DNA of 64,000 bases from Candidatus Heimdallarchaeum aukensis (GCA_021513695.1 CP084166.1:896001-960000), one strand, 5' to 3'; shown: positions 25,666 to 59,002, counted from the first letter of the stretch. A program made the numbers and translations. Notes: generated by a model not told the origin, from the sequence alone.

Positions 25666-27126
25666 ATGGAGGGCGTCGTTAAAACCTTGAAAGTGAGAAT
25701 AAAGAATGAGGTGTTGACGACTAGAAAAAAGCTAAGGTTAAGGAGAATAACGGGGAGAGACACAAGGATTATAGAAAAGTATGTGAGAATAATACACCAT
25801 AACAGAAGAAAGATATGTATACGAACCAAAAAAGGGAAAATAAGAGTACATAGAGGAAAATTAGATGAGTTGACGCTTACTACTTCAAAAGTTAAAGAAG
25901 AAGAGATGAGAACGACTGTTCCTCACGACCTTAAGAAAATGTTTCCTTACTGTTCTCACAATGAGTTTCAAGAGTGTAGAGATATAGCTGTGCAACTGTA
26001 CGAGCAAGGATATCGACCCAGTTCTAAACGTCCTCTCATAAAGAGAGTAAGAAGGCAACTAATTAATGGAAAAAGATTCATCCTTGTTCATCTACCAAAA
26101 GAAAAGAATAACACTCTTACTCGTTGGTGGGTGGGAATAAGAGACTCGTTAGACACGTGGAAAAGAAATACCCCCTACCATCAGAAGTTGTGGTTACCTT
26201 TAGAGATAAGCACTTTTCATCAGAAAGAGTTGAAAAAAGGACAAGTGAAAAGCCTAGAATTAAGATATAAGCATTCTACACGTGAGTGGTGGGTGTATTT
26301 TCAACTAAAAGTTCTCCCTCCTTCTTCTTTTCTAAGCGATAATTCCTCTTCTTCTTCTCTTCCTCCAGCTGTGCTGGGAATAGATCTGGGGATAAACATT
26401 CCAGGTGCAGGAGTGCTTCTAGCCCCTAAAAAGAAGTTAACTATTAAAGAGATAAAATTCTGGTATACCAAACAGTGGAATAAATTTAATCATAGATATA
26501 AACTTAAACTTTCCCGTCTTCAGAGGAAAGCGGCTTTAAATGACCAGTCGGGTAAAAAACACCAAATTTATCGTTTTCTTGGATATCTTCGAAGAAGATA
26601 TAGAAACGTTAAACGAGCCTATATTCACCAATTTGTAAGCGATATTGTGCGGACAATAGAGAGTTATGCGCAAGTGTATGATCTTTTTGTCGTCGTAGGT
26701 TACCCCAAAAATGTTAGAAAAGGAAAAGGAAAAGAAAAAGGGAAAAGTAAAAGTACTCGTTATTTTCGCAGAAAACTTCATCAGTGGAACTATGCTCATG
26801 TTCTTGGTCTTCTCCGTCGAGCATTGATATTAAGAGGTTTTGCTCCTCACCGCATTCTTATAATAGACGAAAGAGGAACATCTTCTCATTGTTCACGTTG
26901 TGGAAAAGAAGTTTCTCGTCCCGTCAGAGGGTTAGTCTCTTGTCCCTCTTGTAACTATACCTTCCACTCTGATTTAACAGGAGCTAGAAATATTGCTCTT
27001 AAGTTCCTTAGTCATCTTTTTCGTCCCCGTGTTACAACTATTACTGATTACTTTACTGGTCAAAAATTCAGTCTTACCCATTACACTGTTTGCCGAGGGC
27101 TCAGCCATTGGTTGCAGTCCCAGTAG
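25666..27126 (+). CDS. tnpB: TnpB (IS200/IS605-family OrfB, RuvC-like RNA-guided nuclease), solo without tnpA
   Basis: 486 aa. N-terminus MEGVVKTLKVRIKNEV.. matches the typical TnpB start. RuvC-I motif GIDLGINIPGAG. C-terminal zinc ribbon CSRCGKEVSRP...CPSCNYTFHSDLTGARNIA. Confidence 0.8.
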   Translation: MEGVVKTLKVRIKNEVLTTRKKLRLRRITGRDTRIIEKYVRIIHHNRRKICIRTKKGKIRVHRGKLDELTLTTSKVKEEEMRTTVPHDLKKMFPYCSHNEFQECRDIAVQLYEQGYRPSSKRPLIKRVRRQLINGKRFILVHLPKEKNNTLTRWWVGIRDSLDTWKRNTPYHQKLWLPLEISTFHQKELKKGQVKSLELRYKHSTREWWVYFQLKVLPPSSFLSDNSSSSSLPPAVLGIDLGINIPGAGVLLAPKKKLTIKEIKFWYTKQWNKFNHRYKLKLSRLQRKAALNDQSGKKHQIYRFLGYLRRRYRNVKRAYIHQFVSDIVRTIESYAQVYDLFVVVGYPKNVRKGKGKEKGKSKSTRYFRRKLHQWNYAHVLGLLRRALILRGFAPHRILIIDERGTSSHCSRCGKEVSRPVRGLVSCPSCNYTFHSDLTGARNIALKFLSHLFRPRVTTITDYFTGQKFSLTHYTVCRGLSHWLQSQ

Positions 27127-28314: not shown

Positions 28315-29418
28315 ATGGGTCAACTTAACAAACCCCTTGAGCTATTAACCACCTTAAGCAACCATAATGGTTCTATTTCATCTATTAGAGCTGATAAAAC
28401 TTATCTTTACTCTGGTTCGAAAGATGATACTTTAAGAATTTTTAAAAAGAGTAGTTGGGAAGAGGTTACTTCTTTAGTTCATTCGTCTTGGGTTAATTGT
28501 ATAGAAGTAGACACTGAAAAGGTTTACTCTGGCTCTAGTGATTCAACTGTTCGAGTTTGGAAAAAAGGTTCCTGGGGTTTAATTTCTTCCATTAAACATT
28601 CTCGTTTTTCTATTGTTAAAGACATTGCCGTTGATAAAGAGCACTGCTATGTTGTTCTAACTGATCGCTCTTTGATTATCTATTCTAAACAAAAGTTTGT
28701 TGAACAGGATAAACTTACTCATACTGGCATAGTTCAATCAGTAGAGGTTGATAACACTAATATTTATTCATCTCTAAGCGATGGAACAGTTGTTATCTGG
28801 ACTAAGAATAATTACGAAGTGGAGAAAGTATTAACTCTTTCTTCTTTTAAAACAGTAGAACAGCTGGAAATAGATAATGCTTACATTTATACTTCTGTTG
28901 GCAAGAACATTAAAGTTTTTGATAAGAAAAAAAAGGAAGTGGTTAAAGAATTAAAAATCAACAAAGGTATAGTTTCTTTAACAGTCGACGACTCACTTTT
29001 ACTTGTAGCTTCTAAAGACAAGAAAGTTTACATGTGGAAGAAAGAAACATACAAAGAATACTCTCCTCTAATTATTGATAAAGCAATTACTTATATCTAT
29101 TCTGACAATGAATTTATTTATGTGGGTTGCAAAAATGGAGAAATAAAGATTTATACCCATCCAATAAAAAGAAAAACTATAAAAAAACAACCAACAAGAA
29201 CAAAAAAGGTTACTAAAAAAGCTGAAAAAGCCCAAAAAACAGAAGAGCCTATTAAAAAAACTAAAGAAGATAAAAAAGAAAAGAAAAAATCAAAGGATTA
29301 CACTGTCAAAGAAGCAAAAGAGCTTATGAGTAAAATGAGCAATGAAGAGATACTAGAGTTTACAGAAGGAGATAAAAGAGTAACAATACAGAAATATCGA
29401 GAAAAAGAACAAAAATAA
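28315..29418 (+). CDS. WD40-like beta-propeller protein with Lys/Glu-rich C-terminal tail
   Basis: About 7 repeats ending in motifs like DDTLRIFKK, DSTVRVWKK, DGTVVIWTK, KVYMWKK, followed by a 90-aa KKE-rich low-complexity tail. Confidence 0.55.
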   Translation: MGQLNKPLELLTTLSNHNGSISSIRADKTYLYSGSKDDTLRIFKKSSWEEVTSLVHSSWVNCIEVDTEKVYSGSSDSTVRVWKKGSWGLISSIKHSRFSIVKDIAVDKEHCYVVLTDRSLIIYSKQKFVEQDKLTHTGIVQSVEVDNTNIYSSLSDGTVVIWTKNNYEVEKVLTLSSFKTVEQLEIDNAYIYTSVGKNIKVFDKKKKEVVKELKINKGIVSLTVDDSLLLVASKDKKVYMWKKETYKEYSPLIIDKAITYIYSDNEFIYVGCKNGEIKIYTHPIKRKTIKKQPTRTKKVTKKAEKAQKTEEPIKKTKEDKKEKKKSKDYTVKEAKELMSKMSNEEILEFTEGDKRVTIQKYREKEQK

Positions 29419-29882: not shown

Positions 29883-31076
29883 TTAAGGTTGATTATACAT
29901 ATCTTGCTCTTTTAGCATTTTTGTTGTTTCTTTATATTTTTTATCTATTTTTTTCATTTTTTTAATAATTTTGTCTATTTGTTCGCGAAAAAGTTGATAC
30001 ATTCCATTTGTTTCGAATTTTAAATCGCTCATTCCTTTCATTACCGTTAAGGGATTTACTATTTGGTCTAGTAATTCTTCTAGTTCTTTTTTGTTCTGTA
30101 ATAATTGGTTTAGCGCTTTTTCTCTTTCTTCGTTAATTTCCAGCATTTCTATGGAAAAACCTAATTCGTTCGCTATTGTGCTAAGAATCACTTCTTCATG
30201 TTCAAAGAACTCTTCCCGTTCTGTTAATAATACCATTATCCCAAATTGTTTCTGTGCTGCGAACATTGGAATAATGACTATATAGCGTGGAGTTTTTCTC
30301 TGTAAAATTGTTGAAGGTACAGCAAGTTCTCTTGCAGAAAAAATTGCATTCTGGTCAAGTTTTACTTTTCTGTTCAATTTATCTAAAAAATTGTATAACT
30401 CTTGTTTTTCTACTTCAGTCAAGTGAGGTCTTGAATTGAGCAATTCTAGCTTTTCATCTTTTTTTCTCAAAATAAAACAATATGTGTAATCGCGGAACTT
30501 ACTTAGTTCTCTAGAGATTGTATCAACCAATACTTGTTTATCTTTAATGTAAATTAGTTTGTTTTGCACAGAAACAGTTACTTTTCCTAACTCGTATATT
30601 TTTTCCAGTTTTTTGGAAAGAAGTTCGAACTTTTCACTTGCTTCAATTAGTTTTTCCTCAGCAAGTTTTCTTTTGGTTATATCAACAGTATAACAAATAA
30701 AGACTCTTTTTCCTTCGTATGTGTAAAAGTTGCTAAAATAAACTCCTGAAATCAACCAACTTTTTTCACCGTATTTGATCTCTCGTTGCACATTTTTTGA
30801 AATCGCTATAGCTTTTTCCAATGGACATCCGCGAAATAGATTATTGACCCCGTGAACAAGATGAGAACAATATCTTCCTATAATTTGTTTTTTTTCTAAA
30901 CCCAATTTTTTTTGGAAAATATCATTAACTAACAGTATGTTATGCTTTTCATCTACTAAAATTATTGGATAAGAAAAACTATCTATGAAACTCTGGATTA
31001 TTGCTATACATTCTTTTGTTAGAATAATTTTCTCTTTTGGTAAACTTACTGGAAAAGTAACATCTTCTCTAATCAT
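29883..31076 (-). CDS. PAS/GAF sensor-like protein, paralog of 22356-23588
   Basis: Shares the N-terminal block FSYPIILVDEKHNILLVN...GRYCSHLVHG...FRGCPLE and C-terminal NPLTVMKGM with the other sensor; no ATPase domain. Confidence 0.55.
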   Translation of the reverse strand: MIREDVTFPVSLPKEKIILTKECIAIIQSFIDSFSYPIILVDEKHNILLVNDIFQKKLGLEKKQIIGRYCSHLVHGVNNLFRGCPLEKAIAISKNVQREIKYGEKSWLISGVYFSNFYTYEGKRVFICYTVDITKRKLAEEKLIEASEKFELLSKKLEKIYELGKVTVSVQNKLIYIKDKQVLVDTISRELSKFRDYTYCFILRKKDEKLELLNSRPHLTEVEKQELYNFLDKLNRKVKLDQNAIFSARELAVPSTILQRKTPRYIVIIPMFAAQKQFGIMVLLTEREEFFEHEEVILSTIANELGFSIEMLEINEEREKALNQLLQNKKELEELLDQIVNPLTVMKGMSDLKFETNGMYQLFREQIDKIIKKMKKIDKKYKETTKMLKEQDMYNQP

Positions 31077-31131
31077 AGTTTTATGTTTAATTTTTTTTTT
31101 TACTTTTAAAGCTCACTATTTAGGAAAAAGG

Positions 31132-31977
31132 TTATCTTTTGCCTTTGAATTTTTTCTTTTTTCTTCTAACCATTAAAAGTACAAAACTTAGAGTTGCAAA
31201 AAAACCTAAATAGACTATCAACTCAAGAGCTGTTGGTTTGTCTTGATAACCAAATAACGATCTTAAGAATCGCCCTATTTCTGTATTTTTATCATCTATA
31301 AATCCACTAGTATCCCATAACTGTTTTTGTAGCCAATATGTTTCTGGCCCAAACCAGTTTATTTCTTGTAGTTCATGTATTCCATAAGTAAACATTCCTG
31401 CAGCAAAGAAAACTAGAAGAATACCTGTTGTTATGAAAAAAGCTTTTATGTTTATTCTCTTTCCTGATAGGAAAACTAAAGCAGCTACTATCAACGCTAC
31501 AACTAGACCTAATACCCCTGACCAAAGCATAGTAAAATAGTTTCCTTCTATTGCTTCTACTCCTGATAGAAACAGAACTGTCTCTACTCCTTCTCTTAGG
31601 ACAGAAAAAACTGTTAATAATAACACCCCGTATTTCTTGCTCTCTTCTAATGTTTGGTCAACCTTTCTTTCTAATCCTTCTTTTATTTTTGACCCCTCTG
31701 AGCTCATCCAGATTATCATCCAACCTAATAGGAGTGAAGCAATGATCATTGTAAAACCTTCAAATATTTCTTCATATCCGCTAAACCCACCTAGTAATAG
31801 TTGGAATAAGACTGCGAAAACGATTGATAGGACTATTCCTATTACCGTTCCTACCCATATCTGTTTTTTCAACTTTCTTTGCTCTATTTTAGAAACATAA
31901 ACTAAAAGTATTCCTACTATTAAAGCAGCTTCCAGAACTTCTCTGAAAGTTATTAGAAAACTGGCTGTGCTAAACAT
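31132..31977 (-). CDS. FTR1/EfeU-family high-affinity iron permease
   Basis: 281 aa, about 7 TM; two REXXE motifs (FREVLEAALIV and LREGVETVLFL) diagnostic of the FTR1 family. Confidence 0.6.
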   Translation of the reverse strand: MFSTASFLITFREVLEAALIVGILLVYVSKIEQRKLKKQIWVGTVIGIVLSIVFAVLFQLLLGGFSGYEEIFEGFTMIIASLLLGWMIIWMSSEGSKIKEGLERKVDQTLEESKKYGVLLLTVFSVLREGVETVLFLSGVEAIEGNYFTMLWSGVLGLVVALIVAALVFLSGKRINIKAFFITTGILLVFFAAGMFTYGIHELQEINWFGPETYWLQKQLWDTSGFIDDKNTEIGRFLRSLFGYQDKPTALELIVYLGFFATLSFVLLMVRRKKKKFKGKR

Positions 31978-32335: not shown

Positions 32336-33110
32336 ATGAACAAACCCGAACGTAACCTGGAGAAACTAAGAAAGATTGTGGTTAAAAAAGCTTTGGAAGG
32401 AGAGAAGATAAAAGAGATAGCTCACAAGTATATGGTGAGTAGGAAGTTTGTGTATAAGTGGTTGAAGAGGTTCAGAGAGAACCATGAAGGAGAATGGTGG
32501 AAAGATAGATCTTCCAGACCAAAAACTATACACAAAAAAGTAGATGAGGAGTTAAAAGAGAGGATAAGGGAGTTAAGAATAAAACAAGGAATGAATGTGG
32601 AGAAGATAGCTTATTTGTTGAAGAGAGAAGGAAAAGCACTCTCTCAGACGACAGTGACGAAAGTAATAAAAGAGTTAGGTCTTCCTTTATGGGTTAATAG
32701 AAAAAAGAGGAAGAGACCTCGATACAAGAGTTTTGAACGTCAAAAACCTAACGAACTCTGGTAGATAGATGTGAAAGGACCATTCTGGGTAGAAGAACAG
32801 GGACAACATCTCCACCTCATAACCTTGATAGACGACCAGTCACGATTCTGTCTGGGAGCTAAATTCCACCCTTTTGCACCAAGAAAAGAGCAGATAATAA
32901 GTTTACTAGAGGAAGCAATAAAAGAGTACGGTTACCCCGAGTCTATCCTCACGGACAATGGAGCACTCTTCTCTTCCGTTAGAGGGAGGAACAAGTACCT
33001 TCTCCCGTTGGTGCCAAACAGAGGGAATAAAACACATCAGAGCTAGAGTTTTTCACCCCGAAACATGTGGAAAAGTAGAAAGATAAATCTATGACTATAT
33101 CCTTATTATT
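32336..33110 (+). pseudogene. IS481-family transposase pseudogene (in-frame TAG, frameshift, 3' truncation)
   Basis: HTH N-terminus; PNELW-TAG-IDVKGPF where Q is expected; integrase-core block LITLIDDQSRF...ILTDNGALFSS. The conserved HPETCGKVER segment falls in a different frame and the end is overrun by the convergent chelatase gene. Confidence 0.65.
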
Positions 33111-35113
33111 TCTGCTCTTGTGTGTTGTGTTATTAGTTCTAAATATGATGGAGCAGGATCTATTCCTTTTTTGTTTCTTGTATCAAATATTGTCATTTTT
33201 ATTTTCTCTTTATTTATTGTTTGTGATAATTCTTCAATTTCCTTCTTTATACTCTTATTCTGTAATGAAGTGTTAGCTTTTCCATCAGTTATTAGTAACG
33301 CTTCTACAATACTCTTTCTGTTCTTATTGCGGAATTTTTTTGTGATACTTAATAGGGATTGAAATCCTGATGCTAATGGCGTTCTTCCTCCTGTAGGTAA
33401 AGTTTTCAATGCATCTATTACACGACAATAATCTCTTGTAGGAGGTACTGTAACATTAGCTTTCTTTCCTCTGAATGCTATCATACCAATATAGTCTCTT
33501 TTTACATATGCTTTTTCAACAAACTTTTCTGCTAAGCCTTTTGCTACACTAATTCTCCTTTGTAATCCCATGCTACCACTAGAATCTAAGATAATCAAGG
33601 TGAGTTTTGGTAATTGTTGTTTTCTTACTTTTACTCGTATCTCATCATCTGTAATTCTTAGTGGTAATTTCTTCATATTCCCTATAGCAGCATACAAGGT
33701 TCCAGATATGTCAATATCTCGTAATTGTTCCTTCTTATTTGGAGGTACATATGAAACAGGATGGCCTTGTAGTGAACCTACTGTTGTTATTCTAGCACTC
33801 CTTGAACCTCTCCACATATGATCGTCACTTAAGTTCTCATGTGCTCGCTGTATCTTTTTTTTTATCTCAATATCTGTTTTTGCACTCTCAAACGTTTCTT
33901 CATGTTCTCCCATTTTGTTATTATCTATATCGTTAGGCTTTTTTTTTACCTCTCTTTCAGCTTTTGTTTCCTCATTTCTTCCTTCCTGTTTTTCTTCTTC
34001 GTTTTTGTTGGATTCCATATCCTTTGTAATTTTTTCTATCATCTCTTGGGGAGCTATGTTATCAAATGGATTTGTTCTTAATCTATGGGGTAAAGCTAGT
34101 TCCATTGCTTTTTTTATGTCCTCTAATGTTACATCTCTACGTCCATCAAGTGCTGCAATTGCCTTTGCTGTTTTTACTGTAACAATTTCAGCTCTATGTG
34201 TCTTTATCCCTAATTTCATTATTGATTTTATTAAGGAGTTTAACAATTCATCATTAATGATTATTGTATCAATAATTTTCCTTGCATCAGTTACTGCTTT
34301 TCTAATTGTATTCTCTTCTCTTTCATATTCCAAGTAAAATTTATCTGGATTCTTGTGAAACTTTTCGACTCTTCTTATAACCTCAATTCTTTCTTCAAAC
34401 TTCTCCAAAGCCTCAATATTAACGTATAAACCAAATCTGTCCAACAATTGGGGGCGTAATTCCCCTTCTTCAGGGTTCATACTCCCTACTAATATAAATC
34501 TCGCAGGATGTTTTACTGAAATGCCCTCCCTTTCAATAATATTCCATCCCATAGCTGCAGCATCAAGCAATACATCAGCTACATAGTCATCTAAAAGATT
34601 CACTTCGTCAATGTACAAGATATTTCTATTTGCTTCTGCTAATATTCCCAGTTCTAAAGCTCTTACACCTTGGGTTAAAGCTTTTTTTATGTTCAGTGTT
34701 CCAACTAGTCTGTCTACTGTAACAGTTAATGGTAAATCTACTACTCTCATTCGTTTTGATGAGATTTTCAATTTCTGCCCTTCTATTGTCATACCATAAC
34801 AGGAATCGCACATTTCTAAATGATGGTACGGATTACAGTTGAAAGGACATTGTGCTACAACCTCAACCTCTGGTAGGACATATGATAATGCCCGAACAAT
34901 TGTTGACTTACCTGTGCCTTTTTCGCCAGTTAGGAGCACTCCTCCTATCGTTGGATCAACTGCGCAACATAGTAGTGCAAGTTTAGCTTTTTCCTGTTCC
35001 ACTATAGCAGTGAAGGGAAATACGATCTTTCTTTCATTTTTGTTCCTTTCTGTTAGATGTCCCATTTTGTATTCACTCATCTCTTTAGTTTTCATTCTCT
35101 TTGTTTTGAACAA
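33095..35113 (-). CDS. Fused ChlI/ChlD-like class I chelatase ATPase subunit (AAA+ MoxR-type N-terminus + vWA C-terminus), CobS/CobT-equivalent
   Basis: Walker A LLTGEKGTGKST and Cys-rich CPFNCNPYH in the N-terminal ChlI/BchI-like part; C-terminal vWA MIDAS motif ILDSSGSMG; immediately downstream of cobN. Confidence 0.8.
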   Translation of the reverse strand: MFKTKRMKTKEMSEYKMGHLTERNKNERKIVFPFTAIVEQEKAKLALLCCAVDPTIGGVLLTGEKGTGKSTIVRALSYVLPEVEVVAQCPFNCNPYHHLEMCDSCYGMTIEGQKLKISSKRMRVVDLPLTVTVDRLVGTLNIKKALTQGVRALELGILAEANRNILYIDEVNLLDDYVADVLLDAAAMGWNIIEREGISVKHPARFILVGSMNPEEGELRPQLLDRFGLYVNIEALEKFEERIEVIRRVEKFHKNPDKFYLEYEREENTIRKAVTDARKIIDTIIINDELLNSLIKSIMKLGIKTHRAEIVTVKTAKAIAALDGRRDVTLEDIKKAMELALPHRLRTNPFDNIAPQEMIEKITKDMESNKNEEEKQEGRNEETKAEREVKKKPNDIDNNKMGEHEETFESAKTDIEIKKKIQRAHENLSDDHMWRGSRSARITTVGSLQGHPVSYVPPNKKEQLRDIDISGTLYAAIGNMKKLPLRITDDEIRVKVRKQQLPKLTLIILDSSGSMGLQRRISVAKGLAEKFVEKAYVKRDYIGMIAFRGKKANVTVPPTRDYCRVIDALKTLPTGGRTPLASGFQSLLSITKKFRNKNRKSIVEALLITDGKANTSLQNKSIKKEIEELSQTINKEKIKMTIFDTRNKKGIDPAPSYLELITQHTRAEIIRI

Positions 35114-38100
35114 ATTTGTTCCATGTTTGTGTTATATTAGTTAATTTATTCTTCCAGTTTTCTACCTCTTCTGGACTATACATCCTTATTTCTCCCCCTT
35201 GAATCTCTGCTTCTCCACCTAAACTATCCTCTAGTACACCTTCAATATCGGCATATGCTTCTTCTAAATTGTCTTTCATCTCTTCTGTGGGTTGCCACAA
35301 CTTCCTTTCTATTGCTTCAGTAAGTCTTCTAGAAATCTCTTCTGCTGCCCATATATTGTTTTCAGCAAACCATTTTCTCATTTCTTCATCAATTATGTAT
35401 GTTTCTGCAATGTTATCGAATACCCAATCGTTAACTAATTTCGTTGTTGATGACCAGCCGTACAAATGCAAGATTTTCTTTGAGAATTCATTTGCTCCTC
35501 GATAACCATGCTTCTTCATTTCAGATATCCATGTTGGATTTAGCAGTTTTGCTCTTACAATTCTCTCTATCTCTTCTTTTATTCCTCGTATTTCTGCTCT
35601 TGTTATGTCTTTAGTATCTACAACAACTATTTCTACATCGTCTTTACCAGTCAGACTTTTTACTGTATTATAAAAACCTCCATGGGTGGAAAAATAACAG
35701 CAACAATTGAGAATATCATGTTCATCAGTAATATGATTTCTTGTAATAACTTCGACATTTTTCAAGTTCATTATTAAGCCTTCAGGGTTTGGTTCACCAA
35801 ATAGCTTTTTAGTATACATGTAACAGCCCCATTGTACCCACGTTTTAGCTAGATCTTCGTCATCTTTCCAAGCTGACGATTCAATAGCATAATTTACTCC
35901 AGATCCATAAGTACCTGAAGGGCTACACCAAACCCTACATTTTGCAATTTCGTGATTTTTTTCCCCACGTAACTCAGTCAAATATTCAAGATAATGCTTT
36001 TTGACATAATTAACATCTGTTGACTCTTCAAGCATAACAACCTTTGATACTGCTTCATCGATCAACTGAAAATAAATTGGTAGAGTATCTCTTACTATTC
36101 CACTGATTCGAACAGAAACATCGATTCGTGGCCTTCCAAGTTCTTCTAACGGAATAACTTCAACTCCTTTAACTGTTCCATCGGTTCGCCAAATAGGCTT
36201 AGTTCCTAATAAATAAAGAATCTGTGAGATCTGTTCTCCGTCTCCTTTATAACCATCAAGACTCCATAACCATTGACCAATAGTTTCTGGATATTTGCCA
36301 TGATGCTTATCGTAATGTTCAAGTAATTTTTCTGCTGTCTCTATTCCTATCTTCCATGCTGCGCGTGTTGGAATACTTGTAGGATCAATAGCATAAAAAT
36401 TCCTTCCAGTGGGTAGTATCTCTATCTTCCCTCTTGTTATTGACCCTGAGGGGCCAGGTTCTATAAACTGTCCACTTATCCCATATAAGAATCCATCTGT
36501 TTCAACTTTACATTCTTGAATTCTTTTTGCTATTTCTAATGCTCTTTGAAATGCTTCAAGAGCTTCTGCCTTTGAAGTGAATTTTAATTTTAATTCATTC
36601 ACTTTGGAACTCATATTTTCTATTAACTTCTTATGGAGGATTTCTGTGAAAGCTTCCATCGTGAGTTTTTCGTTATTAGTTTCATTTTCAAGAAGAGTCT
36701 TCAAAACCTCTATTGCAACTTTATGTAATATTTTAAGAGTATCTTTATTTAGAAGACCATATTCATTAATAACTAGTTTGTTGTTTCTTAAATGATTATA
36801 ATCAAGCCCAATACACTCTGCAAGACACCTTCTTATTGAATGAAATGAATGGGTATCATAACTCATTGTAGTGACTACATATTCTGCTAACTTTACTGAG
36901 TTTTTAGTGGGGTAGCCAAAAATATGCAATCCCATTTCGATTTGTGTTTCCATTGTCGCGTTTAGATAATTATGGATCTCCTCTACAACATGTTTAGGAT
37001 CTTCTTTTGTGATTGGAATATTGCTTTCTTTTGCTTTTTTTATGAGCTCTTCATATATTACTCTCACCCTAGCATTGTCACCCAGTTGTTCTGCTTTAGA
37101 ATATTCAGTTAATAATGAATCGATTTCGTCAAGCACTTCTGCCATTGCTAAAGGAGGGTACATGTGATCCACTATAGTGGCATAGCTTCTTCTCTTAGCT
37201 ATTACTCCTTCCATCGGATTCGAAACATTATAGACATATAGATGAGGAATATCATCAATAGATATTTCTGGCCAACATGAAGGTGATAAACCTACTCCTT
37301 TACCTGGTCTAAATTCAAGGTATCCATGTGTTCCAAAATGAACAATCATGTTTGCCTTCCAAATTCTTGAAATCCATCTATATACTGCAAACCATTGATG
37401 TGGAGGTGAAATCGATGGGTCATGAAGAATTTTGCATACATTGCCATCACAAGCTGCACCCGCACAGCCAGGCTTTGGTTGCGTGATAACTAGAACATTT
37501 CCAAAACTTATACCTGGTATGACAAACTTATTGTTATAAACCATACCAATTAACGGTTTAGGAGCTTTTCCCAAAAGAATATCCTCAGGATAGCCCCAAT
37601 CTTCTTGAATTTTCTCTTTAGTATCTATAGGTAGCTCGTTAAACCAGTTCATATATGTTTTAAGATCAGAATAACCAACTGCTCCACCTTTTTTCACTAT
37701 TTCGTCAACAGATGTCCAACGAAACTCACTTATTGCTTTTCGTTCAGTGAACATCTCAACTAGCTCTTTTCCATCCTTTGGAAGCGTTTCACCAATATTG
37801 TAACCTCTCTTCTTTAAGTCTTTAAGAAGTCGAACAACACTTTCGGGAACATCAAGGCCAAATCCAACACCAATACTTCCTTCAAGACTCTTACATGGCG
37901 GAGTTATTAGGACAATTGCTATTTTTCGCTTCTCTGGAGGAAGATATCGTAAAGTGATCCATTTCTTTACACGTTTAGCGATATATTGGGCATGGTGTTC
38001 AAAACATTCGTACCTCTTTATTCCTTGGGGATCAATCTTTGCACCACCTAAATATATAGGCTCAATAATCCCATCTACTTCAGGCATGATTACTGTATAG

Positions 38101-38987
38101 ATTTGACTCATGTAACTGATGCCTGTTTCATCAGAGAGCCAATCGTTGATACCTTTAGAGAAGTCTCGTACTCCTTGAAGTATTGGTATATTCATCTTTT
38201 TAAGTAATTCAAGCCCTCTCACACTTTTGAATCCTTCAGATTTTAATCGTATTATTTTTCTACTAAGTAAAAAGAAACTAGTTAAATTGATTAGAACATC
38301 GATAGTTGGCTTTTCATCTTTTATGAAAAAAGTTTGAATTGTACTTTCACTATCTGGAGCATCTACTCTTGTATCGCCAAAGGAATATGTGAATACAGGT
38401 ATAACGCCTATTCCTTCTTCTTCTAACGCATCTATAATCGGTTTCACATAATCAGTGTTGCCATATAGCCAAATCGATCTGTAAAACATTATCCCTACAA
38501 ATTTCTTTTCATTATGTGGATAGATCTTTAAATAATCATTTAGTTCGTTGAAAGTGCCATATTTAGGATGCCATATTCCATGCCATGGAACTTTTTTTAA
38601 TCCATCAACTTCAATATTTTCCCCCAAAGCTTGCAAAAGCAAGCGAATAAGTTGTGTAAGATTCTGCTCTCCTCCGAACTTATAAAATGCAATAGCCTTA
38701 CTGATTACCTCATTTGTAGCTTTAGAGAGATGAACTGTTGAGTCGGATCCAGAAATTATAATCTTTGCACTGCTTTGACTAATTGCTTTCTCAACATCTG
38801 TAGAAAGGCCAGCAGAATAGATAAAAATGGCATCTGCATTCTTAATGAATTCTTCGTGTTTTGTGGCTTGAGAATCTGTTGTAATAATATACCTGAATCC
38901 ATTTTTTTCTGATTCCTTTGACAAGGCTTTTGATAGTGATGGTATTGCTGTTCCACTATAACCTATGATAAATGCTAAATTAATCAT
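35085..38987 (-). CDS. cobN: CobN/ChlH-family large chelatase subunit (cobalto-/nickel-chelatase, class I)
   Basis: 1300 aa; conserved HFGTHGYLEFRPGKGVGLS (CobN H-x-G-T-H-G-x-x-E-x-x-P-G-K) motif; size typical of CobN. Confidence 0.85.
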   Translation of the reverse strand: MINLAFIIGYSGTAIPSLSKALSKESEKNGFRYIITTDSQATKHEEFIKNADAIFIYSAGLSTDVEKAISQSSAKIIISGSDSTVHLSKATNEVISKAIAFYKFGGEQNLTQLIRLLLQALGENIEVDGLKKVPWHGIWHPKYGTFNELNDYLKIYPHNEKKFVGIMFYRSIWLYGNTDYVKPIIDALEEEGIGVIPVFTYSFGDTRVDAPDSESTIQTFFIKDEKPTIDVLINLTSFFLLSRKIIRLKSEGFKSVRGLELLKKMNIPILQGVRDFSKGINDWLSDETGISYMSQIYTVIMPEVDGIIEPIYLGGAKIDPQGIKRYECFEHHAQYIAKRVKKWITLRYLPPEKRKIAIVLITPPCKSLEGSIGVGFGLDVPESVVRLLKDLKKRGYNIGETLPKDGKELVEMFTERKAISEFRWTSVDEIVKKGGAVGYSDLKTYMNWFNELPIDTKEKIQEDWGYPEDILLGKAPKPLIGMVYNNKFVIPGISFGNVLVITQPKPGCAGAACDGNVCKILHDPSISPPHQWFAVYRWISRIWKANMIVHFGTHGYLEFRPGKGVGLSPSCWPEISIDDIPHLYVYNVSNPMEGVIAKRRSYATIVDHMYPPLAMAEVLDEIDSLLTEYSKAEQLGDNARVRVIYEELIKKAKESNIPITKEDPKHVVEEIHNYLNATMETQIEMGLHIFGYPTKNSVKLAEYVVTTMSYDTHSFHSIRRCLAECIGLDYNHLRNNKLVINEYGLLNKDTLKILHKVAIEVLKTLLENETNNEKLTMEAFTEILHKKLIENMSSKVNELKLKFTSKAEALEAFQRALEIAKRIQECKVETDGFLYGISGQFIEPGPSGSITRGKIEILPTGRNFYAIDPTSIPTRAAWKIGIETAEKLLEHYDKHHGKYPETIGQWLWSLDGYKGDGEQISQILYLLGTKPIWRTDGTVKGVEVIPLEELGRPRIDVSVRISGIVRDTLPIYFQLIDEAVSKVVMLEESTDVNYVKKHYLEYLTELRGEKNHEIAKCRVWCSPSGTYGSGVNYAIESSAWKDDEDLAKTWVQWGCYMYTKKLFGEPNPEGLIMNLKNVEVITRNHITDEHDILNCCCYFSTHGGFYNTVKSLTGKDDVEIVVVDTKDITRAEIRGIKEEIERIVRAKLLNPTWISEMKKHGYRGANEFSKKILHLYGWSSTTKLVNDWVFDNIAETYIIDEEMRKWFAENNIWAAEEISRRLTEAIERKLWQPTEEMKDNLEEAYADIEGVLEDSLGGEAEIQGGEIRMYSPEEVENWKNKLTNITQTWNKFVQNKENEN

Positions 38988-38989
38988 GA

Positions 38990-39781
38990 TTAATCGGTCA
39001 CCTCGACTGGATAAACACTGATTGGATAGACAATTTTACAATGATTGTTGTTGATTATTCTCGCGTTTATTCCATATGCTTTTGCGATATTTGCTTCATT
39101 AATGACTACTTCTGGTTTTCCTGCCCCTATTATTTGACCTTTAGCAAGTATAACAATAAAATTTGAAAATCTCAATGCTAAATTAGGATCATGTTGGCTC
39201 ATTATTGCGCATATTTTTCTTTCTTTTACAATCTTGTTAATTATAGTCATAACTTTTAGTTGGTTTTTCAGATCTAAATGTGCAGTTGGTTCATCAAGAA
39301 TCAACACTTCTGGCTCTTGAGTTAAAGCTCTTGCAATTAATAATAATTGGCGTTCTCCTCCGCTAATTTGAGTATATGACCTGTCTCTCATATGGTAAAG
39401 ATTAACAAGTTTCAGCATTTCTTCAGCTTTAGAATAATCCTCTTCTGATGGCAGAGAAAACATTGAAGTGTAGGGAGTTCGCCCTAAAAGAACAAAATCT
39501 AGAGCAGAAAGAGCAAATAAAGGATTGTGATTTTGAGGAACATACCCGATTATTTTTGCCCTTTCCCTTTGTCCTATCTCGAAAATACTTTTCTTGTCTA
39601 TAAAAATACAGCCTTTTTTTGGCTTTAGAAGAGTACAGATGCATTTTAAAAGTGTAGTCTTGCCAGAACCATTTGGACCCAGTAGACTAACGACTCCACC
39701 TTTTTCAACTTGTATTTTTATCTCTCTTAATTCAAATTCAATATCATACGAAAATGAAAGATTATCAATTACTAATGCCAT
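38990..39781 (-). CDS. ABC transporter ATP-binding protein (FepC/BtuD/FhuC type)
   Basis: Walker A LLGPNGSGKTTLLK, signature LSGGERQ, Walker B LILDEPTAHLD. Confidence 0.85.
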   Translation of the reverse strand: MALVIDNLSFSYDIEFELREIKIQVEKGGVVSLLGPNGSGKTTLLKCICTLLKPKKGCIFIDKKSIFEIGQRERAKIIGYVPQNHNPLFALSALDFVLLGRTPYTSMFSLPSEEDYSKAEEMLKLVNLYHMRDRSYTQISGGERQLLLIARALTQEPEVLILDEPTAHLDLKNQLKVMTIINKIVKERKICAIMSQHDPNLALRFSNFIVILAKGQIIGAGKPEVVINEANIAKAYGINARIINNNHCKIVYPISVYPVEVTD

Positions 39782-40800
39782 ACGCCTTTACTCCTTTTTC
39801 TTAACAGGTAAAGAAAGAATGGTGCTCCACACAAAGTTGTGAGTATACCAACTGGAATTTCATAAGGTAGTAATGACCTTGCTATATTGTCAGCGAGTAA
39901 AAGAATAGATGCACCAGTTGCTGCAGATAGTGGAATTATTTTTCTATTATCAGCAGTTTTGAAGAGCATTCTTATTGTGTGCGGAATTATCAGTCCTATC
40001 CATCCTATAATGCCACATACTGAGATCAAAGAAGCAGAAACCAATGTTGCTGCTCCTAGAACTAGTAATCTCTCTTTCTCAACATTTATACCTAACGTTT
40101 TTGCTTCCTCATCCTTCATAGACAATGCATTAAGCCTCCATCTCATACCAAATAGAATTAAGGAACCTATTAAGATTGGAGGAAAAATTTGTAACACTTC
40201 TTTCCATGATATGGTTGAAAACCTTCCCAATAACCAATATACAATATCTGCAACATGGTTGGGTTCTACAATAAATTTAATAATAGATAAGCATGCTGAA
40301 AAAAGAGAAGAGACTATTATTCCTGCCAAAATAAGTGAAATTACTTGCACATCTCCCTGAGTTTTTGCTACCAAATATGTCGTACCAAATGCTATTATAC
40401 CAAATATGAAAGCAAATATTTGGACAAGAAATGAATCTAATAATAATAAAGAAATTGCAAGGGCTGCGCCAAACGCAGAACCAGCTGAAACACCTAGAAT
40501 ATACGTGTCTACAAGCGGGTTCCTAAAGACTGCTTGTAATGATGCACCAGAAACTGAAAGTGCAATTCCACCTAATACTGCTGCAATAATTCTAGGTAAT
40601 CTGATTTCGAAGATAATTACTTCATATGCTCTAGGCCATGATTTTTCTGGTGTGAGTGAAAAAATCTTAGAAATTATTATTCTTAGCACTGTTCCAGCTG
40701 GAATGTATAATCGACCAATAAAAATTGAGAAAAAAACTATAAGTAGTGGGGAAAAATAAAGAAAATAAAGAATTGCTTTTTTAGGTACTGATAGTTTCAT
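39772..40800 (-). CDS. FecCD-family ABC permease (BtuC/FepD-like)
   Basis: 342 aa, about 9-10 TM, Gly-rich helices typical of FecCD permeases; overlaps the ATPase gene by a few codons. Confidence 0.8.
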   Translation of the reverse strand: MKLSVPKKAILYFLYFSPLLIVFFSIFIGRLYIPAGTVLRIIISKIFSLTPEKSWPRAYEVIIFEIRLPRIIAAVLGGIALSVSGASLQAVFRNPLVDTYILGVSAGSAFGAALAISLLLLDSFLVQIFAFIFGIIAFGTTYLVAKTQGDVQVISLILAGIIVSSLFSACLSIIKFIVEPNHVADIVYWLLGRFSTISWKEVLQIFPPILIGSLILFGMRWRLNALSMKDEEAKTLGINVEKERLLVLGAATLVSASLISVCGIIGWIGLIIPHTIRMLFKTADNRKIIPLSAATGASILLLADNIARSLLPYEIPVGILTTLCGAPFFLYLLRKRSKGVWH

Positions 40801-40832
40801 AGTAACTCACATGTAAATTTTGGTAACTAACT

Positions 40833-41894
40833 TTATTGCCATTCAAAGGGATCATTGATACCATAAATATTCATGAAGAGATTATTTGAAACAGTTTCAA
40901 AATTTATATCAGTAAATAAGTCTGGATAAGCCCACATCCCCATGCGTAGCACAATAAGTGGTGAAGCAGGAGACCATGTACTAAGTTTAGGGTATTGGAA
41001 GACCTTTTGATTTTGAACCGCACTGATACTTTGCCATTGTGTGTCATTCAATATGTCTTCAGGAGTATATTTTGCTGATCCCCAAATTACAATAACATCA
41101 GGATTCCATGCGATGATTTCTTCAATTGAAACCTCAGCATATTTTTCTTTAATATCGACAGCAGGATTGATACAACCGCATATGTGTATGTAAGTGTTTG
41201 TTACACCAAGCCCGCCTGTTACTTTTGTTTTGCTGCTCCATAAGTGAATCATTTTTAGTTTTGAATCTATTGTAAGATCATTTGTCTTTGAGGAAGGTAT
41301 ATCCATTGTTTTTTTCATATAAGTGATGATTTCACTAGCCCTGTCACTCACATTGAATATTTCACCTAAAAGCTCTATGCATTGATATAAATCATCTAAG
41401 TTGTCTAAACTAATCAGCACTACGGATATGTTTAATGCTTCTATTTGAGGAAGTATGTCTTGCATATGAGAACTTGCATAAGCTATAACAACTTCAGGAT
41501 CTTCCAGAACTAATTCCTCGATGTTCACACTAAATGAGGAACCTGGTGAGGGAACATCTGTAAGGTTGAAATTATATTGTTCATCGGCAGCTACTAAGAT
41601 TGGATTACTATAAGCGTATTTTGAGATACCAACGACTTTATCCCATTGTCCTAAGGCATATACGATATCGTAACTCTCTAAAACTACTACTCTGTTGACT
41701 TCATAGGGAATTGTTACATTGCGCCCTTCAAAATCAGTAATAACCTTATAATCTGGGAGACCAAGATTATGTGATGATAAGTAGTATAGACCAACTATAC
41801 CGCCAGTTACTATACTAGCTATAATTATTCCAATTATTATAGCTCTTGAATTTATTTTTCTCAACAAGGTCATTTTTGCTCCTATGTGCCCCAA
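40833..41894 (-). CDS. Substrate-binding protein of the corrinoid/siderophore/metal-chelate ABC importer (class III SBP, BtuF/FepB-like)
   Basis: 353 aa, N-terminal signal/TM anchor, operon position upstream of FecCD permease and ATPase. Confidence 0.65.
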   Translation of the reverse strand: MGHIGAKMTLLRKINSRAIIIGIIIASIVTGGIVGLYYLSSHNLGLPDYKVITDFEGRNVTIPYEVNRVVVLESYDIVYALGQWDKVVGISKYAYSNPILVAADEQYNFNLTDVPSPGSSFSVNIEELVLEDPEVVIAYASSHMQDILPQIEALNISVVLISLDNLDDLYQCIELLGEIFNVSDRASEIITYMKKTMDIPSSKTNDLTIDSKLKMIHLWSSKTKVTGGLGVTNTYIHICGCINPAVDIKEKYAEVSIEEIIAWNPDVIVIWGSAKYTPEDILNDTQWQSISAVQNQKVFQYPKLSTWSPASPLIVLRMGMWAYPDLFTDINFETVSNNLFMNIYGINDPFEWQ

Positions 41895-41912
41895 ATTGGA
41901 TAAGTTATAAAA

Positions 41913-41939
41913 GTGTTACGATTTTAATATTCGTAACAC
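41913..41939. promoter_or_regulatory. Perfect inverted repeat GTGTTACGA-N9-TCGTAACAC in the promoter region of the transporter/chelatase operon (candidate metal-regulator operator)
   Basis: 9-bp arms, perfect dyad symmetry, about 20-45 bp upstream of the SBP start and next to a TTTATAA-like element. Confidence 0.4.
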
Positions 41940-42058: not shown

Positions 42059-42338
42059 TATCTTCTAACTATAAACTTCTTGGAGATAAAAAAACCTAAA
42101 CAAAGTAAAACTACAACACAAAAAATGGCTCTAGTAGATAAACCAAATTTACCAGGGTAAGAATCAGCATTAAGAGGGTCTAAACCATTTTGTATCTCTT
42201 AATAATCTGAATAACCATCTCCATCAGTATCAAGATTGTTAGGGTCTGTGTTATAATTGTATTCCTCTAAATTGGTTAAACCGTCATTATCACTATCTTC
42301 ATCTGCATCATGGTTTTTGTTAGCTCTGTTTTAGCATA
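42059..42338 (-). pseudogene. C-terminal fragment of a cell-surface protein: thrombospondin-type-3-like Ca-binding Asp repeats plus a PGF-CTERM-like anchor, with an in-frame TAA; the 5' part is replaced by the CRISPR array
   Basis: Minus-strand translation gives ...DADEDSDNDGLTNLEEYNYNTDPNNLDTDGDGYSDY*EIQNGLDPLNADSYPGKFGLSTRAIFCVVVLLCLGFFISKKFIVRR* (a PG-F/K motif, then a TM helix and basic tail). Upstream it runs directly into the first CRISPR repeat. Confidence 0.55.
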
Positions 42339-42341
42339 CTC

Positions 42342-45300
42342 ATTTTCACACTACTTAGTTCAGCTTAAACCTCGTACTTGCTTGCAGAAGCACCTAGCAC
42401 GTAGTAATTTTCACACTACTTAGTTCAGCTTAAACCTTTCGATAATGATGGTGTTAGTGGTGAAGTGCAAAATTTTCACACTACTTAGTTCAGCTTAAAC
42501 AATCTATCAAGTGTCTCATTTTTTACGTTTCCTAGATTTTCACACTACTTAGTTCAGCTTAAACAATAACGTTTGAACATTGTTCTCGAATTCTTCATAA
42601 ATTTTCACACTACTTAGTTCAGCTTAAACAGTTGATGAAGGTGTGACAAAGTGTGACACTTCGATATTTTCACACTACTTAGTTCAGCTTAAACATTCTA
42701 CTTTTTTCTCAATCAATTTACAAGTTAGAGCGTCATTTTCACACTACTTAGTTCAGCTTAAACAGAACTAGGATCAGTCTCGGTCCATTCAGAAACTCGA
42801 TTTTCACACTACTTAGTTCAGCTTAAACTCCTAAAATAATAACTGATCCTAAGAATCCTGATAAGATTTTCACACTACTTAGTTCAGCTTAAACCCAGAG
42901 TGAGAACGGGGTTATAGGTCAATAATAAAGAAATTTTCACACTACTTAGTTCAGCTTAAACTTTGTTTTGATTTTTCTTTCTTTCAGGATAGCATCAATT
43001 TTCACACTACTTAGTTCAGCTTAAACAAATGGCTAAAAGAACCACAAGAACTTCAAGAAAATAATTTTCACACTACTTAGTTCAGCTTAAACTTTACATT
43101 TATATAACTTCCCCAGAAGATTATATATAATTTTCACACTACTTAGTTCAGCTTAAACCAGCAATGTTGGCACATCTCCCCACTCTACTTTCTCATTTTC
43201 ACACTACTTAGTTCAGCTTAAACATTACTCTTTTTTCTTTACAAAACATTTATATATTATATTTTCACACTACTTAGTTCAGCTTAAACGTTATATTAAG
43301 TGTTAAATAGTTCTCTTTTCCTTCTTATTTTCACACTACTTAGTTCAGCTTAAACGTAAAAAAATGAGTAATTCAGAAGAACATTTTCACACTACTTAGT
43401 TCAGCTTAAACTGAAAACCTTATAGGCTGGCGTGAATACGCAAACCTAATTTTCACACTACTTAGTTCAGCTTAAACACGTTTCCAAGTAAATCTGTTAC
43501 TATTTCAAATTTATTTTCACACTACTTAGTTCAGCTTAAACTGATTTACGTTACCCTCATGTTTGTTATGTTTATTTATTTTCACACTACTTAGTTCAGC
43601 TTAAACGAATTTACTTTACACAATGATCGTGCTGATACTGTTTTATTTTCACACTACTTAGTTCAGCTTAAACACATTGCTTGATATTGGAATTTTATAT
43701 CTTAATATATTTTCACACTACTTAGTTCAGCTTAAACCTGACTTTTTTGGAGAATTTGGTTTCGCTGATAGTAATTTTCACACTACTTAGTTCAGCTTAA
43801 ACTAGAAAATTGTATTCTTCAAACTATACGTATAGATATTCCATTTTCACACTACTTAGTTCAGCTTAAACCTTAAATTATCTTCAAACCAATCAGAATA
43901 ATAAAGTTCATATTTTCACACTACTTAGTTCAGCTTAAACATAAATATCGCTATTTCTCCTTTCTTAACTGTTCTTAATTTTCACACTACTTAGTTCAGC
44001 TTAAACCATAATCTATCATAAAAAAGTCTCCTATATCATAAGTATTTTCACACTACTTAGTTCAGCTTAAACACTATTTTTCCACCTTCTCTTTCTTCCC
44101 ATTCTCTCTTATTTTCACACTACTTAGTTCAGCTTAAACTTTGTACTTCACTGTGCTTAATATCTCTACTTATACTATTTTCACACTACTTAGTTCAGCT
44201 TAAACTTTATCACCCCTCATATATTTATTATACTTCCTAAAATTTTCACACTACTTAGTTCAGCTTAAACCGTACACCCATTCCTTAGGTGTCCAGTCTA
44301 ATACTTATTTTCACACTACTTAGTTCAGCTTAAACTCACCTATATATATGATGTTCTAACACATAAAAATCATTTTCACACTACTTAGTTCAGCTTAAAC
44401 CTGACTTTTTTGGAGAATTTGGTTTCGCTGATAGTAATTTTCACACTACTTAGTTCAGCTTAAACTAGAAAATTGTATTCTTCAAACTATACGTATAGAT
44501 ATTCCATTTTCACACTACTTAGTTCAGCTTAAACCTTAAATTATCTTCAAACCAATCAGAATAATAAAGTTCATATTTTCACACTACTTAGTTCAGCTTA
44601 AACATAAATATCGCTATTTCTCCTTTCTTAACTGTTCTTAATTTTCACACTACTTAGTTCAGCTTAAACCATAATCTATCATAAAAAAGTCTCCTATATC
44701 ATAAGTATTTTCACACTACTTAGTTCAGCTTAAACACTATTTTTCCACCTTCTCTTTCTTCCCATTCTCTCTTATTTTCACACTACTTAGTTCAGCTTAA
44801 ACTTTGTACTTCACTGTGCTTAATATCTCTACTTATACTATTTTCACACTACTTAGTTCAGCTTAAACTTTATCACCCCTCATATATTTATTATACTTCC
44901 TAAAATTTTCACACTACTTAGTTCAGCTTAAACCGTACACCCATTCCTTAGGTGTCCAGTCTAATACTTATTTTCACACTACTTAGTTCAGCTTAAACTC
45001 ACCTATATATATGATGTTCTAACACATAAAAATCATTTTCACACTACTTAGTTCAGCTTAAACCTCATAACAAATGGATAAAGACTATTGAAATCAAGAA
45101 TTTTCACACTACTTAGTTCAGCTTAAACCAATTATTATCGCAACAGCCATCTCAAGATCACCTTATTTTCACACTACTTAGTTCAGCTTAAACGTTTTTG
45201 AATAACAGTCTGTGAAGAGAGAGAAGCAAATTTTCACACTACTTAGTTCAGCTTAAACGTCTTATTTCGTTAAAATCTTCAACAATAGCTTGTTGATTTT

Positions 45301-48300: not shown

Positions 48301-48420
48301 TATCTTCTTTTTCCTCATAGACCTTAATTTTCACACTACTTAGTTCAGCTTAAACATTTATTCCTGCTATACGCAATAGACTTGAAAACGTATTTTCACA
48401 CTACTTAGTTCAGCTTAAAC
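42342..48420 (-). CRISPR. CRISPR array 1: about 92 copies of the 29-bp repeat ATTTTCACACTACTTAGTTCAGCTTAAAC (+ strand) with 35-40 bp spacers; leader at the 48420 end, so it is transcribed on the - strand
   Basis: Perfect periodic repeat of about 66 bp seen directly; the transcribed orientation is GTTTAAGCTGAACTAAGTAGTGTGAAAAT, identical to array 2. Confidence 0.95.
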
Positions 48421-52745: not shown

Positions 52746-52850
52746 ATTGTATTTTTTTGTTTAAATTTTACAATTAATTTTTGAAAAAACAACCTTTAAA
52801 ATATTTTTTTCTTTCTGTTTTACCAATAAAACTTAATTATTGGTGTTCCA

Positions 52851-55785: not shown

Positions 55786-55791
55786 TAATAG

Positions 55792-58990: not shown

Positions 58991-59002
58991 CGAAATGATG
59001 GA

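Follow-up and report, generated by a model that had tools for sequence, protein, structure and literature searches.

A five-gene operon in a 64,000-nucleotide stretch of archaeal DNA (hereafter the window, with positions counted from its first letter) is preceded by a 27-bp palindrome at 41913-41939 that agrees with the published consensus for the nickel regulator NikR at all 14 half-site positions. The operon joins a substrate-binding protein (SBP), a FecCD-type permease and an ABC ATPase to a CobN/ChlH-family large subunit and a ChlI/ChlD-type AAA+/VWA protein (ChlID). We consider it rather likely that this is a nickel-starvation operon, repressed by nickel-loaded NikR, whose products import chelated nickel that is then processed by CobN and ChlID. 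CobN/ChlH homologues are widespread in archaea and in strict anaerobes without the aerobic cobalamin or the chlorophyll pathway, and a 2025 structural study called the function of archaeal CobN/ChlH/HmuS homologues unclear. An exact NikR box before CobN, ChlID and an importer resembling Helicobacter NiuBDE would tie the CobN family to nickel starvation, agrees with the so far unexplained ~300-fold rise of CobN1 when Methanothermobacter is short of nickel and offers a testable nickel-related function for archaeal CobN homologues. NikR boxes, NikR-controlled FecCD-type nickel import in Helicobacter, class I chelatases and the linkage of CobN-like genes to Btu-like transporters are already known. 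A literature search returned no paper on a NikR box before a CobN/ChlID-importer operon and none giving the archaeal CobN clade a role in nickel starvation; Rodionov 2006 may include related predictions.

The palindrome matches the NikR box at the operon promoter

The palindrome, GTGTTACGA-N9-TCGTAACAC, consists of two perfect 9-bp arms separated by 9 bp, exactly as the initial annotation had described it, and can equally be written GTGTTAC-N13-GTAACAC. This is the NikR signal of Rodionov et al. 2004 (Genome Biol 5:R90, PMC545781), GTGTTAC-[N13/14]-GTAACAC, a 27-28-bp inverted repeat that was derived upstream of nickel transporters and predicted before nikMNQO in delta-proteobacteria; the same work described everted sites for Desulfotalea. 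The window site has both 7-bp half-sites without mismatch at the 13-bp spacing, the consensus being delta-proteobacterial and the host archaeal. A bare 9-bp palindrome is within chance in so AT-rich a window: perfect inverted repeats with 9-bp arms and spacers of at most 20 nt number 19, against 20.8 +/- 5.8 in Markov simulations, and those with at least four G+C per arm number two, against 0.94 expected. The identity of its sequence is beyond chance. For a perfect GTGTTAC-N13/14-GTAACAC, counted on both orientations, only 0.0005 occurrences per 64 kb are expected, and one of 2000 simulations contained it; a match to the consensus with at most one mismatch is expected 0.017 times per 64 kb. 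The palindrome occurs once in the window, even when three mismatches are allowed.

On the operon strand the palindrome is followed directly by a TATA-like box, TTTTATAA (41905-41912, minus strand), then by 21 nt, a Shine-Dalgarno-like AGGAG (41879-41883, minus strand, 5 nt before the start codon) and the ATG at 41873, which lies 39 nt past the right arm; both boxes were read directly from the DNA. Because the TATA-like box abuts the right half-site, that half-site occupies the position expected of the transcription factor B recognition element (BRE). The initial annotation had proposed an operator overlapping BRE and TATA for a regulator of the DtxR, NikR or MntR type, and among these the sequence fits NikR. 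We therefore regard the 27-bp palindrome as a candidate NikR-type operator. It shares with GTGTTAC-type NikR operators the half-sites, the spacing of 13 (14 in an orthologue), the length of 27-28 bp, the location in the promoter of a metal-uptake operon and the existence of everted variants. It differs from them in its target, a FecCD-type importer and class I chelatase operon rather than nikMNQO, nikABCDE or NiCoT, and, because the host is archaeal, in overlapping BRE/TATA instead of the -35 and -10 elements. We also considered the half-site as a mere BRE and rejected this, since the BRE consensus is purine-rich and TAACAC misfits it, and the same heptamers are present in bacterial loci.

The site recurs before homologous clusters

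Some 100 loci that contain related SBP or CobN genes were gathered, labelled L001 onward and annotated by BLASTP with the five window proteins; a search of genome contigs gave four distant loci. Both arms of the palindrome are intact in contigs of the 98%-identical strains L001-L003. Over ~225 nt the 98% strain differs from the window by nine substitutions. The arms are free of them, and five lie in the spacer or within the four bases next to the left arm, a suggestive pattern that with nine differences only is not significant alone. A more distant orthologue from a JGI metagenome (L004, 65% SBP identity) carries GTaTTAC-N14-GTAACAC, placed by motif scan and a 13/14 match with the other spacing that the consensus permits, at the same distance from the start codon. 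The upstream DNA of L004 is unrelated to that of the window and holds no CRISPR array, so the site is part of the operon promoter rather than of the CRISPR array found upstream of it in the window.

Scanning the non-redundant loci that hold homologous clusters (1.42 Mb in total) for paired sites with at most two mismatches yielded nine, six of which lie within 80 bp upstream of cluster transporter genes, in the window, L004, L012, L019, L068 and L069. The last four are everted. The Syntrophomonadaceae contig L012 has a perfect GTAACAC-N13-GTGTTAC at -42 to -16 of the SBP ATG, Thermodesulfatator (L019) has aTAgCAC-N13-GTGTTAC 3 bp before an FmdE-SBP-FecCD-ABC operon, L068 has GTAACAC-N14-GTGTTtC 19 bp before an SBP gene, and L069 has GTAgCAC-N13-GTGcTAC between divergent ABC and FecCD genes. 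The archaeal locus L011 carries aTGTTAt-N13-aTAACAC followed by a TATA box, and heptamers directly 5' of the TATA box are found in four archaeal loci: L017 (GTAACAC-TTATAAAC), L026 (aTAACAC-TTAAATG), L005 (aTAACAC-TTATATAC) and L011 (aTAACAC-TTAAATAT). The layout of the window, (G/A)TAACAC and then TTAAAT or TTATA, is seen in L004, L005, L011, L017 and L026. A direct repeat, GTGTTAC-N14-GTGTTAC, stands just past the TATA box in L023, and L021 has two copies of GTAACAC between its divergent Gate and CobN genes.

With composition-matched permuted heptamers as controls and the discovery loci excluded, GTAACAC ranked 2 of 420 (11 matches in 8 loci against a mean of 3.1), and the paired motif gave three matches against a mean of 0.33, a count reached by 4 of the 420 permutations. 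A Poisson estimate of the enrichment (14 matches against 1.5 expected, p ~1e-9) was discarded in favour of these permutation controls, as it is inflated by the difference in composition between upstream regions and coding DNA.

A chelatase and a FecCD-type importer are encoded together

The content, coordinates and tight packing of the operon are as initially annotated, with Pfam assigning all five minus-strand genes. The SBP gene (40833-41873; Peripla_BP_2, class III, 9.8e-29), whose product has an N-terminal membrane anchor, is followed by genes for a FecCD/BtuC-type permease (39772-40800; FecCD, 5e-90), an ABC transporter ATPase (38990-39781; ABC_tran, 4.4e-33), a CobN/ChlH-family large subunit of 1300 aa (35085-38987; CobN-Mg_chel, 1141 bits) and a 672-aa motor subunit combining a ChlI-like AAA+ and a ChlD-like VWA part in a single polypeptide (33095-35113; AAA_lid_2, Mg_chelatase, AAA_5 and VWA_2). 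The gaps and overlaps along the operon are +32, -10, +2 and -29 nt, so the five genes likely share one transcript. The probable start of the SBP gene is the ATG at 41873 with its preceding AGGAG, and the resulting 346-aa product was also picked by the separate gene caller of the sequence collection; the listing of open reading frames (ORFs) begins instead at TTG 41894. A class III SBP, a FecCD permease and an ABC ATPase encoded together make up the gene set of a NiuBDE-like importer.

The linkage of chelatase and FecCD importer to which the initial annotation drew attention is conserved across distant lineages. In most collected loci CobN adjoins FecCD, ABC, SBP and ChlID genes in shuffled order. 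The complete five-gene operon is found in Thermococcus paralvinellae, beside an Mbh/Mrp hydrogenase cluster, and in a DHVE2 archaeon, and a Nezhaarchaeales cluster has the order CobN-ChlID-SBP-FecCD-ABC. In Methanococcus maripaludis (L013) a CobN-ChlID orthologue (52%) has Gate, ABC and SBP genes as neighbours. Desulfomonile has a cluster with ExbBD-TonB, and Thermodesulfatator likewise has a homologous cluster. Bacterial versions include a TonB-dependent receptor or ExbBD-TonB, which argues that the imported substrate is a chelate and not a free ion.

Two further features of these clusters were observed. CobN is split at the same point into two overlapping ORFs (~800 + ~500 aa) in the archaeal loci L005-L007 (4133-8034), L023, L025, L026 and L051. 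A Gate-domain membrane protein (PF07670, ~315 aa) recurs beside archaeal CobN-ChlID in L013 (15903-16859), L017 (1816-2778), L020 (746-1696) and L021 (2704-3642); in the window this partner gene may have been lost or displaced.

Several lines of evidence point to nickel

The importer resembles a known nickel transporter. In the PDB the window SBP matches 4ovk, an uncharacterised SBP, at 8e-31 and then the nickel-binding CeuE/NiuB of Helicobacter pylori (4ino/4inp/4ls3) at 1.5e-26, which makes the latter its nearest named solved relative by overall homology rather than by residue-level comparison; the match to BtuF is far weaker (3e-6). NiuBDE, an importer of the FecCD type, takes up nickel and is among the targets of NikR (PMC5140060). 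Helicobacter NiuBDE (CeuE/FecDE) thus shares with the window operon a Peripla_BP_2 SBP, a FecCD permease and an ABC ATPase, and features NikR control and the import of nickel as a complex rather than as a free ion. It differs in having no chelatase partner, and the window SBP is anchored by a transmembrane helix.

Three metagenomic loci, L046, L052 (two genes) and L093, encode NikR or NikR_C-domain proteins within their homologous CobN/ChlID/FecCD clusters. The L093 cluster encodes a full protein with ribbon-helix-helix (RHH) and NikR_C domains, L052 has one full NikR together with a NikR_C protein at the tail of ChlID-FecCD-ABC, and in L046 a NikR_C protein directly follows CobN-ChlI-ChlD. 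The short proteins at the operon ends of L052 (5189-5530) and L046 (17204-17494) match NikR_C only, with no RHH match; such proteins could be nickel sensors or carriers rather than DNA-binding regulators, and the L046 ORF may be a frame-shifted full NikR. Genes connected with nickel enzymes also occur as neighbours: HypD adjoins CobN-ChlID in L051, and the T. paralvinellae operon has the Mbh/Mrp hydrogenase cluster beside it.

Methanogen proteomics provides an independent connection. When Methanothermobacter marburgensis is limited for nickel, CobN1 (MTBMA_c06860) rises from ~7e6 to ~2.5e9, roughly 300-fold, the predicted transporter MTBMA_c10530 ~40-fold and NikR1 ~30-fold (2025 proteomics source data; Nature 2025, PMC12350162). 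In this stimulon a CobN paralogue, a transporter and a NikR homologue all respond strongly to limiting nickel; it comes from another organism, and the paper gives neither an operator nor a function. MTBMA_c10530 sits two genes from chelatase-like genes that were once suggested to be nickel chelatases (PMC3087415). The Gate-domain protein found beside CobN-ChlID in other loci may correspond to this induced transporter. Taken together, the evidence points to nickel and not to cobalt or corrinoid.

CobN and ChlID belong to the class I chelatase superfamily

CobN matches its Pfam profile over positions 2-1089 of 1090, and the AAA+/VWA partner has intact Walker A (GEKGTGKST), Walker B (ILYIDEVN) and MIDAS (metal-ion-dependent adhesion site; DSSGS) motifs, which places the pair in the class I chelatase superfamily. 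Neither protein reaches any of the NCBIfam equivalog cut-offs for cobalto- or Mg-chelatase: CobN reaches 1234 for NF004646 (cut-off 1468), 778 for TIGR02257 (822) and 764 for the BchH model TIGR02025 (829), and ChlID reaches 641.6 bits for TIGR02442, 'putative cobaltochelatase' (779.45), over an alignment of 1-638 of 641. In the PDB, CobN scores 521 bits with Mtb CobN, 448 with ChlH and 329 with the HmuS dechelatase. The window pair therefore has the same full-length large subunit and AAA+/VWA motor as CobNST and ChlHID/BchHID, and differs from them in its sub-equivalog scores, in carrying I and D in one polypeptide, in being linked to an importer with no cob or bch linkage, and in occurring in organisms without tetrapyrrole synthesis.

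CobN carries no signal peptide or N-terminal anchor and is predicted to be a cytoplasmic subunit. Its cysteines C508, C513, C518 and C1095-C1097 (motifs GCAG-RCDG-VCKILHDP and NCCCYF) are invariant in a 15-member alignment of the CobN clade and could bind an Fe-S cluster or a metal; an Fe-S cluster has been reported for some BchH proteins. The ChlID protein carries a Cys-rich insert, CPFNCNPYHHLEMCDSC. The identical CobN is on record solely on a 9.3-kb Logan contig. The nearest named relatives of CobN are from Methanococcus maripaludis (52%) and from Thermococcus, Pyrococcus and Palaeococcus (~53%). All surveyed Pyrococcus and Thermococcus genomes lack any tetrapyrrole biosynthesis gene (Storbeck et al., PMC3004389), so there can be no endogenous tetrapyrrole metalation in these organisms and any macrocycle or chelate must be imported.

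The HmuS/BtuS dechelatases of Bacteroidota offer a precedent, as CobN-family proteins whose genes accompany an uptake system and which obtain a scarce metal by removing it from a chelate that has been taken up. Metal removal is proven for members of the family: HmuS, whose structures have been solved (9d26), is a heme dechelatase, and BtuS is required for the use of heme iron. HmuS is periplasmic and membrane-anchored, has a Met-rich insertion, uses NADH rather than ATP and works without ChlID, whereas the window CobN would be cytoplasmic and is paired with an ATPase motor. CobN is also shorter (1300 aa against 1463), lacks the N-terminal anchor or signal, has no hmu genes beside it by Pfam, and matches 9d26 in two stretches, the best covering residues 829-1258, more weakly than it matches CobN and ChlH. 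Since HmuS is periplasmic, independent of ATP and without ChlID, the window CobN does not fall in its subfamily.

A model for NikR-controlled uptake of chelated nickel

From the sequence match of the site, its position and conservation, the homologies of the proteins and the synteny of the clusters, we infer NikR binding, repression by nickel, what is imported and which way the CobN reaction runs. In the model, a NikR tetramer that occupies the two half-sites together would lie across BRE and TATA. Blocking TBP/TFB from such a position is how other archaeal repressors act, and nickel-loaded NikR at this site would likewise keep TBP/TFB off the promoter, silencing all five genes. When nickel is scarce the repressor would leave and the operon would be expressed; repression of this kind agrees with the direction of the M. 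marburgensis response to nickel limitation. Chelated nickel would then enter through the FecCD/ABC importer with its membrane-anchored SBP, a transporter of the NiuBDE class, and cytoplasmic CobN, powered by the AAA+/VWA motor of ChlID, would act on the imported metal-chelate. We favour an ATP-driven reaction in which CobN would strip nickel from the chelate or transfer it out, over forward insertion of nickel into an organic ligand.

Several observations weigh against this model. The NikR assignment of the consensus was computational and made for delta-proteobacteria; no nikR gene is found in the 64-kb window by Pfam or by further scans; and the GTGTTAC-type box is not found in the nikR-containing loci L046, L052 and L093. 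Recurrence of the site at other clusters is real but only moderate (p ~0.005-0.01 with proper controls), and many homologous clusters are without the motif, including those of M. maripaludis (L013) and T. paralvinellae (L015); at those clusters where it does recur, as in the window, it lies in the promoter of a transporter whose nickel specificity is itself predicted. Homology of the SBP leaves its ligand unfixed, and the M. marburgensis CobN1 is a family member and not an established orthologue of the window CobN. Finally, on the sense strand the site yields a stable hairpin and then a U-run, with a CRISPR array upstream of it.

A bolder form of the model, which we put forward tentatively, is that in archaea other than methanogens (Asgard, Thermococcales, DHVE2), and in some bacteria that are anaerobic, the NikR-controlled class I 'chelatase' is an ATP-powered nickel harvester, with NiuBDE-like import of a very stable nickel chelate and extraction of the metal by CobN and ChlID. 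Candidates for the chelate would be a nickelophore or an environmental nickel tetrapyrrole (F430-derived or geoporphyrin nickel), and the extracted nickel could go to hydrogenase and CODH maturation. If true, this would be a third archaeal route of nickel acquisition besides NikMNQO/NikABCDE and NiCoT, and the first ATP-driven dechelatase.

Alternative explanations

The operon might instead serve the salvage of corrinoids or metalloporphyrins, in line with the initial annotation and with a 'BtuS' annotation, with CobN and ChlID inserting cobalt or exchanging the metal and the palindrome binding a regulator other than NikR. The best NCBIfam match of the permease is BtuC, the ATPase matches corrinoid and heme transporters, cobaltochelatases provide both the top-scoring models and the top PDB match of CobN, and CobN-like BtuS proteins beside Btu-like transporters have been proposed to act in metalloporphyrin salvage. 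All of these scores fall under the equivalog cut-offs, however, those of the permease and ATPase included, and the SBP is much nearer to CeuE/NiuB than to BtuF. Neither a cobalamin riboswitch nor any other Rfam family is found in the whole window at gathering threshold. The exact match of the operator to the box of a nickel regulator, the nikR/NikR_C genes within homologous clusters and the induction of a CobN paralogue by nickel limitation also argue against salvage, which we consider unlikely; corrinoid salvage in particular has no specific support here.

A NikR-controlled chelatase working in the forward direction would draw on the same nickel evidence as the model that we prefer. CobN and ChlID would insert nickel, at the expense of ATP, into a tetrapyrrole, either sirohydrochlorin on the way to F430 or a macrocycle brought in from outside, as a high-affinity alternative to CfbA. 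The Walker and MIDAS motifs are as intact as in true chelatases, and the clade includes Methanococcus and the Nezhaarchaeales cluster, which on its contigs stands among methanogenesis-type genes (Mch, Mer-like, Fwd subunits, MfnB). Kaster 2011 (PMC3087415) suggested that the CobN-like chelatases of Methanothermobacter are nickel chelatases. The host, however, is probably a Heimdall-type Asgard archaeon, and the same operon is present in T. paralvinellae and a DHVE2 archaeon, with no tetrapyrrole pathway in the surveyed Thermococcales. F430 synthesis is, moreover, already explained by CfbA-E. The initial annotation had suggested, as one possibility, metal delivery for the F430/cobamide pathway in a methanogen; this frame is not supported, given the absence of methanogenesis genes from the window and its Heimdallarchaeia marker homologues, as well as the CobN relatives in Thermococcales, whose surveyed genomes lack tetrapyrrole synthesis, the lack of an Rfam match and the sub-cut-off chelatase scores. 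We consider forward insertion unlikely as well.

Alternatively, the inverted repeat could act as an RNA hairpin with a U-tract that terminates or insulates read-through from the CRISPR array and an adjacent gene remnant, and have no protein-binding role. A hairpin of 9 bp can indeed form in the sense-strand RNA (-14.8 kcal/mol, z = -4.9), with UUUU just behind it, and the 93-repeat array is probably transcribed towards the operon, judging by repeat orientation. At other loci, however, the heptamers are direct (L023), everted (L012, L068, L019, L069) or single beside a TATA box, arrangements in which no such hairpin is possible, and in L004, with no array upstream, the stem is mismatched and the spacing altered while the heptamers are kept. 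Retention of the heptamers in inverted, everted and direct arrangements indicates that their sequence is conserved and not their pairing, which makes a purely RNA-level role improbable; a terminator or insulator role could coexist with an operator role. That the palindrome is a functionless accident of AT-rich intergenic DNA, as the expected frequency of 9-bp-arm repeats and its uniqueness in the window would allow, is very improbable given the exact match to a published consensus, its retention with the alternative spacing in the 65% orthologue and its recurrence upstream of homologous clusters.

The host and the surrounding DNA

The DNA probably comes from an AT-rich Asgard archaeon of hydrothermal or marine sediment, an assignment resting on one gene, which encodes an RlmF/METTL16-related methyltransferase (19082-19903, minus strand). 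All seven of its organism-named homologues are from Heimdallarchaeia (46-59%), unnamed metagenomic ones being closer. A WD40-repeat protein at 28315-29418, together with the methyltransferase, suggests an Asgard host and not a methanogen. If the host is truly of Heimdall type, the palindrome would be a first candidate metal-responsive operator in that group.

The window also contains a glycosylation island, insertion sequence (IS) elements, a TnpB-like gene, a type I-B cas operon and the CRISPR array. The array (42342-48420) is very large and fills the ORF-free 6.6 kb immediately upstream of the operon. Its 93 repeats of 29 nt are all identical (plus strand ATTTTCACACTACTTAGTTCAGCTTAAAC), and its 92 spacers measure 27-42 nt, most of them 35-40; ten spacers form a block that is duplicated in tandem at 43738-45064. 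Between array and operon lies the C-terminal remnant of a surface protein (42060-42300, minus strand) with thrombospondin-type-3-like DxDxDG repeats and a PGF-CTERM-like sorting signal, PGKFGLSTRAIFCVVVLLCLGFF. A stop interrupts this remnant, which directly adjoins the final CRISPR repeat, so it was apparently the array that truncated the gene. The cas operon (52023-61000, plus strand) encodes Cas6, Cas8b/TM1802, Cas7, Cas5, Cas3 and Cas4 by Pfam, followed by ORFs of 328 and 91 aa that are Cas1- and Cas2-sized. Two ~500-aa ORFs without a family match, one with a weak winged helix-turn-helix, lie between the cas operon and the array (48570-51525, minus strand).

Directly downstream of the ChlID gene, two plus-strand ORFs (32336-33046) resemble a broken IS481-like transposase, with HTH_32/HTH_28 and then a fragment of the rve integrase core. 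Just past this remnant, on the strand of the operon, are genes for an FTR1-family iron/lead permease and a PAS/GAF protein (29883-31977, minus strand). A DDE_Tnp_1 IS element is present twice, at 8376-9320 and 15495-16440, the second copy split into two ORFs, with the same 27-nt context at ~8920 and ~16040. These copies and the gene for a 486-aa TnpB-like protein with a Cas12f1-like TNB domain (25666-27126) are embedded in the island of glycosyltransferase and sugar-modification genes.

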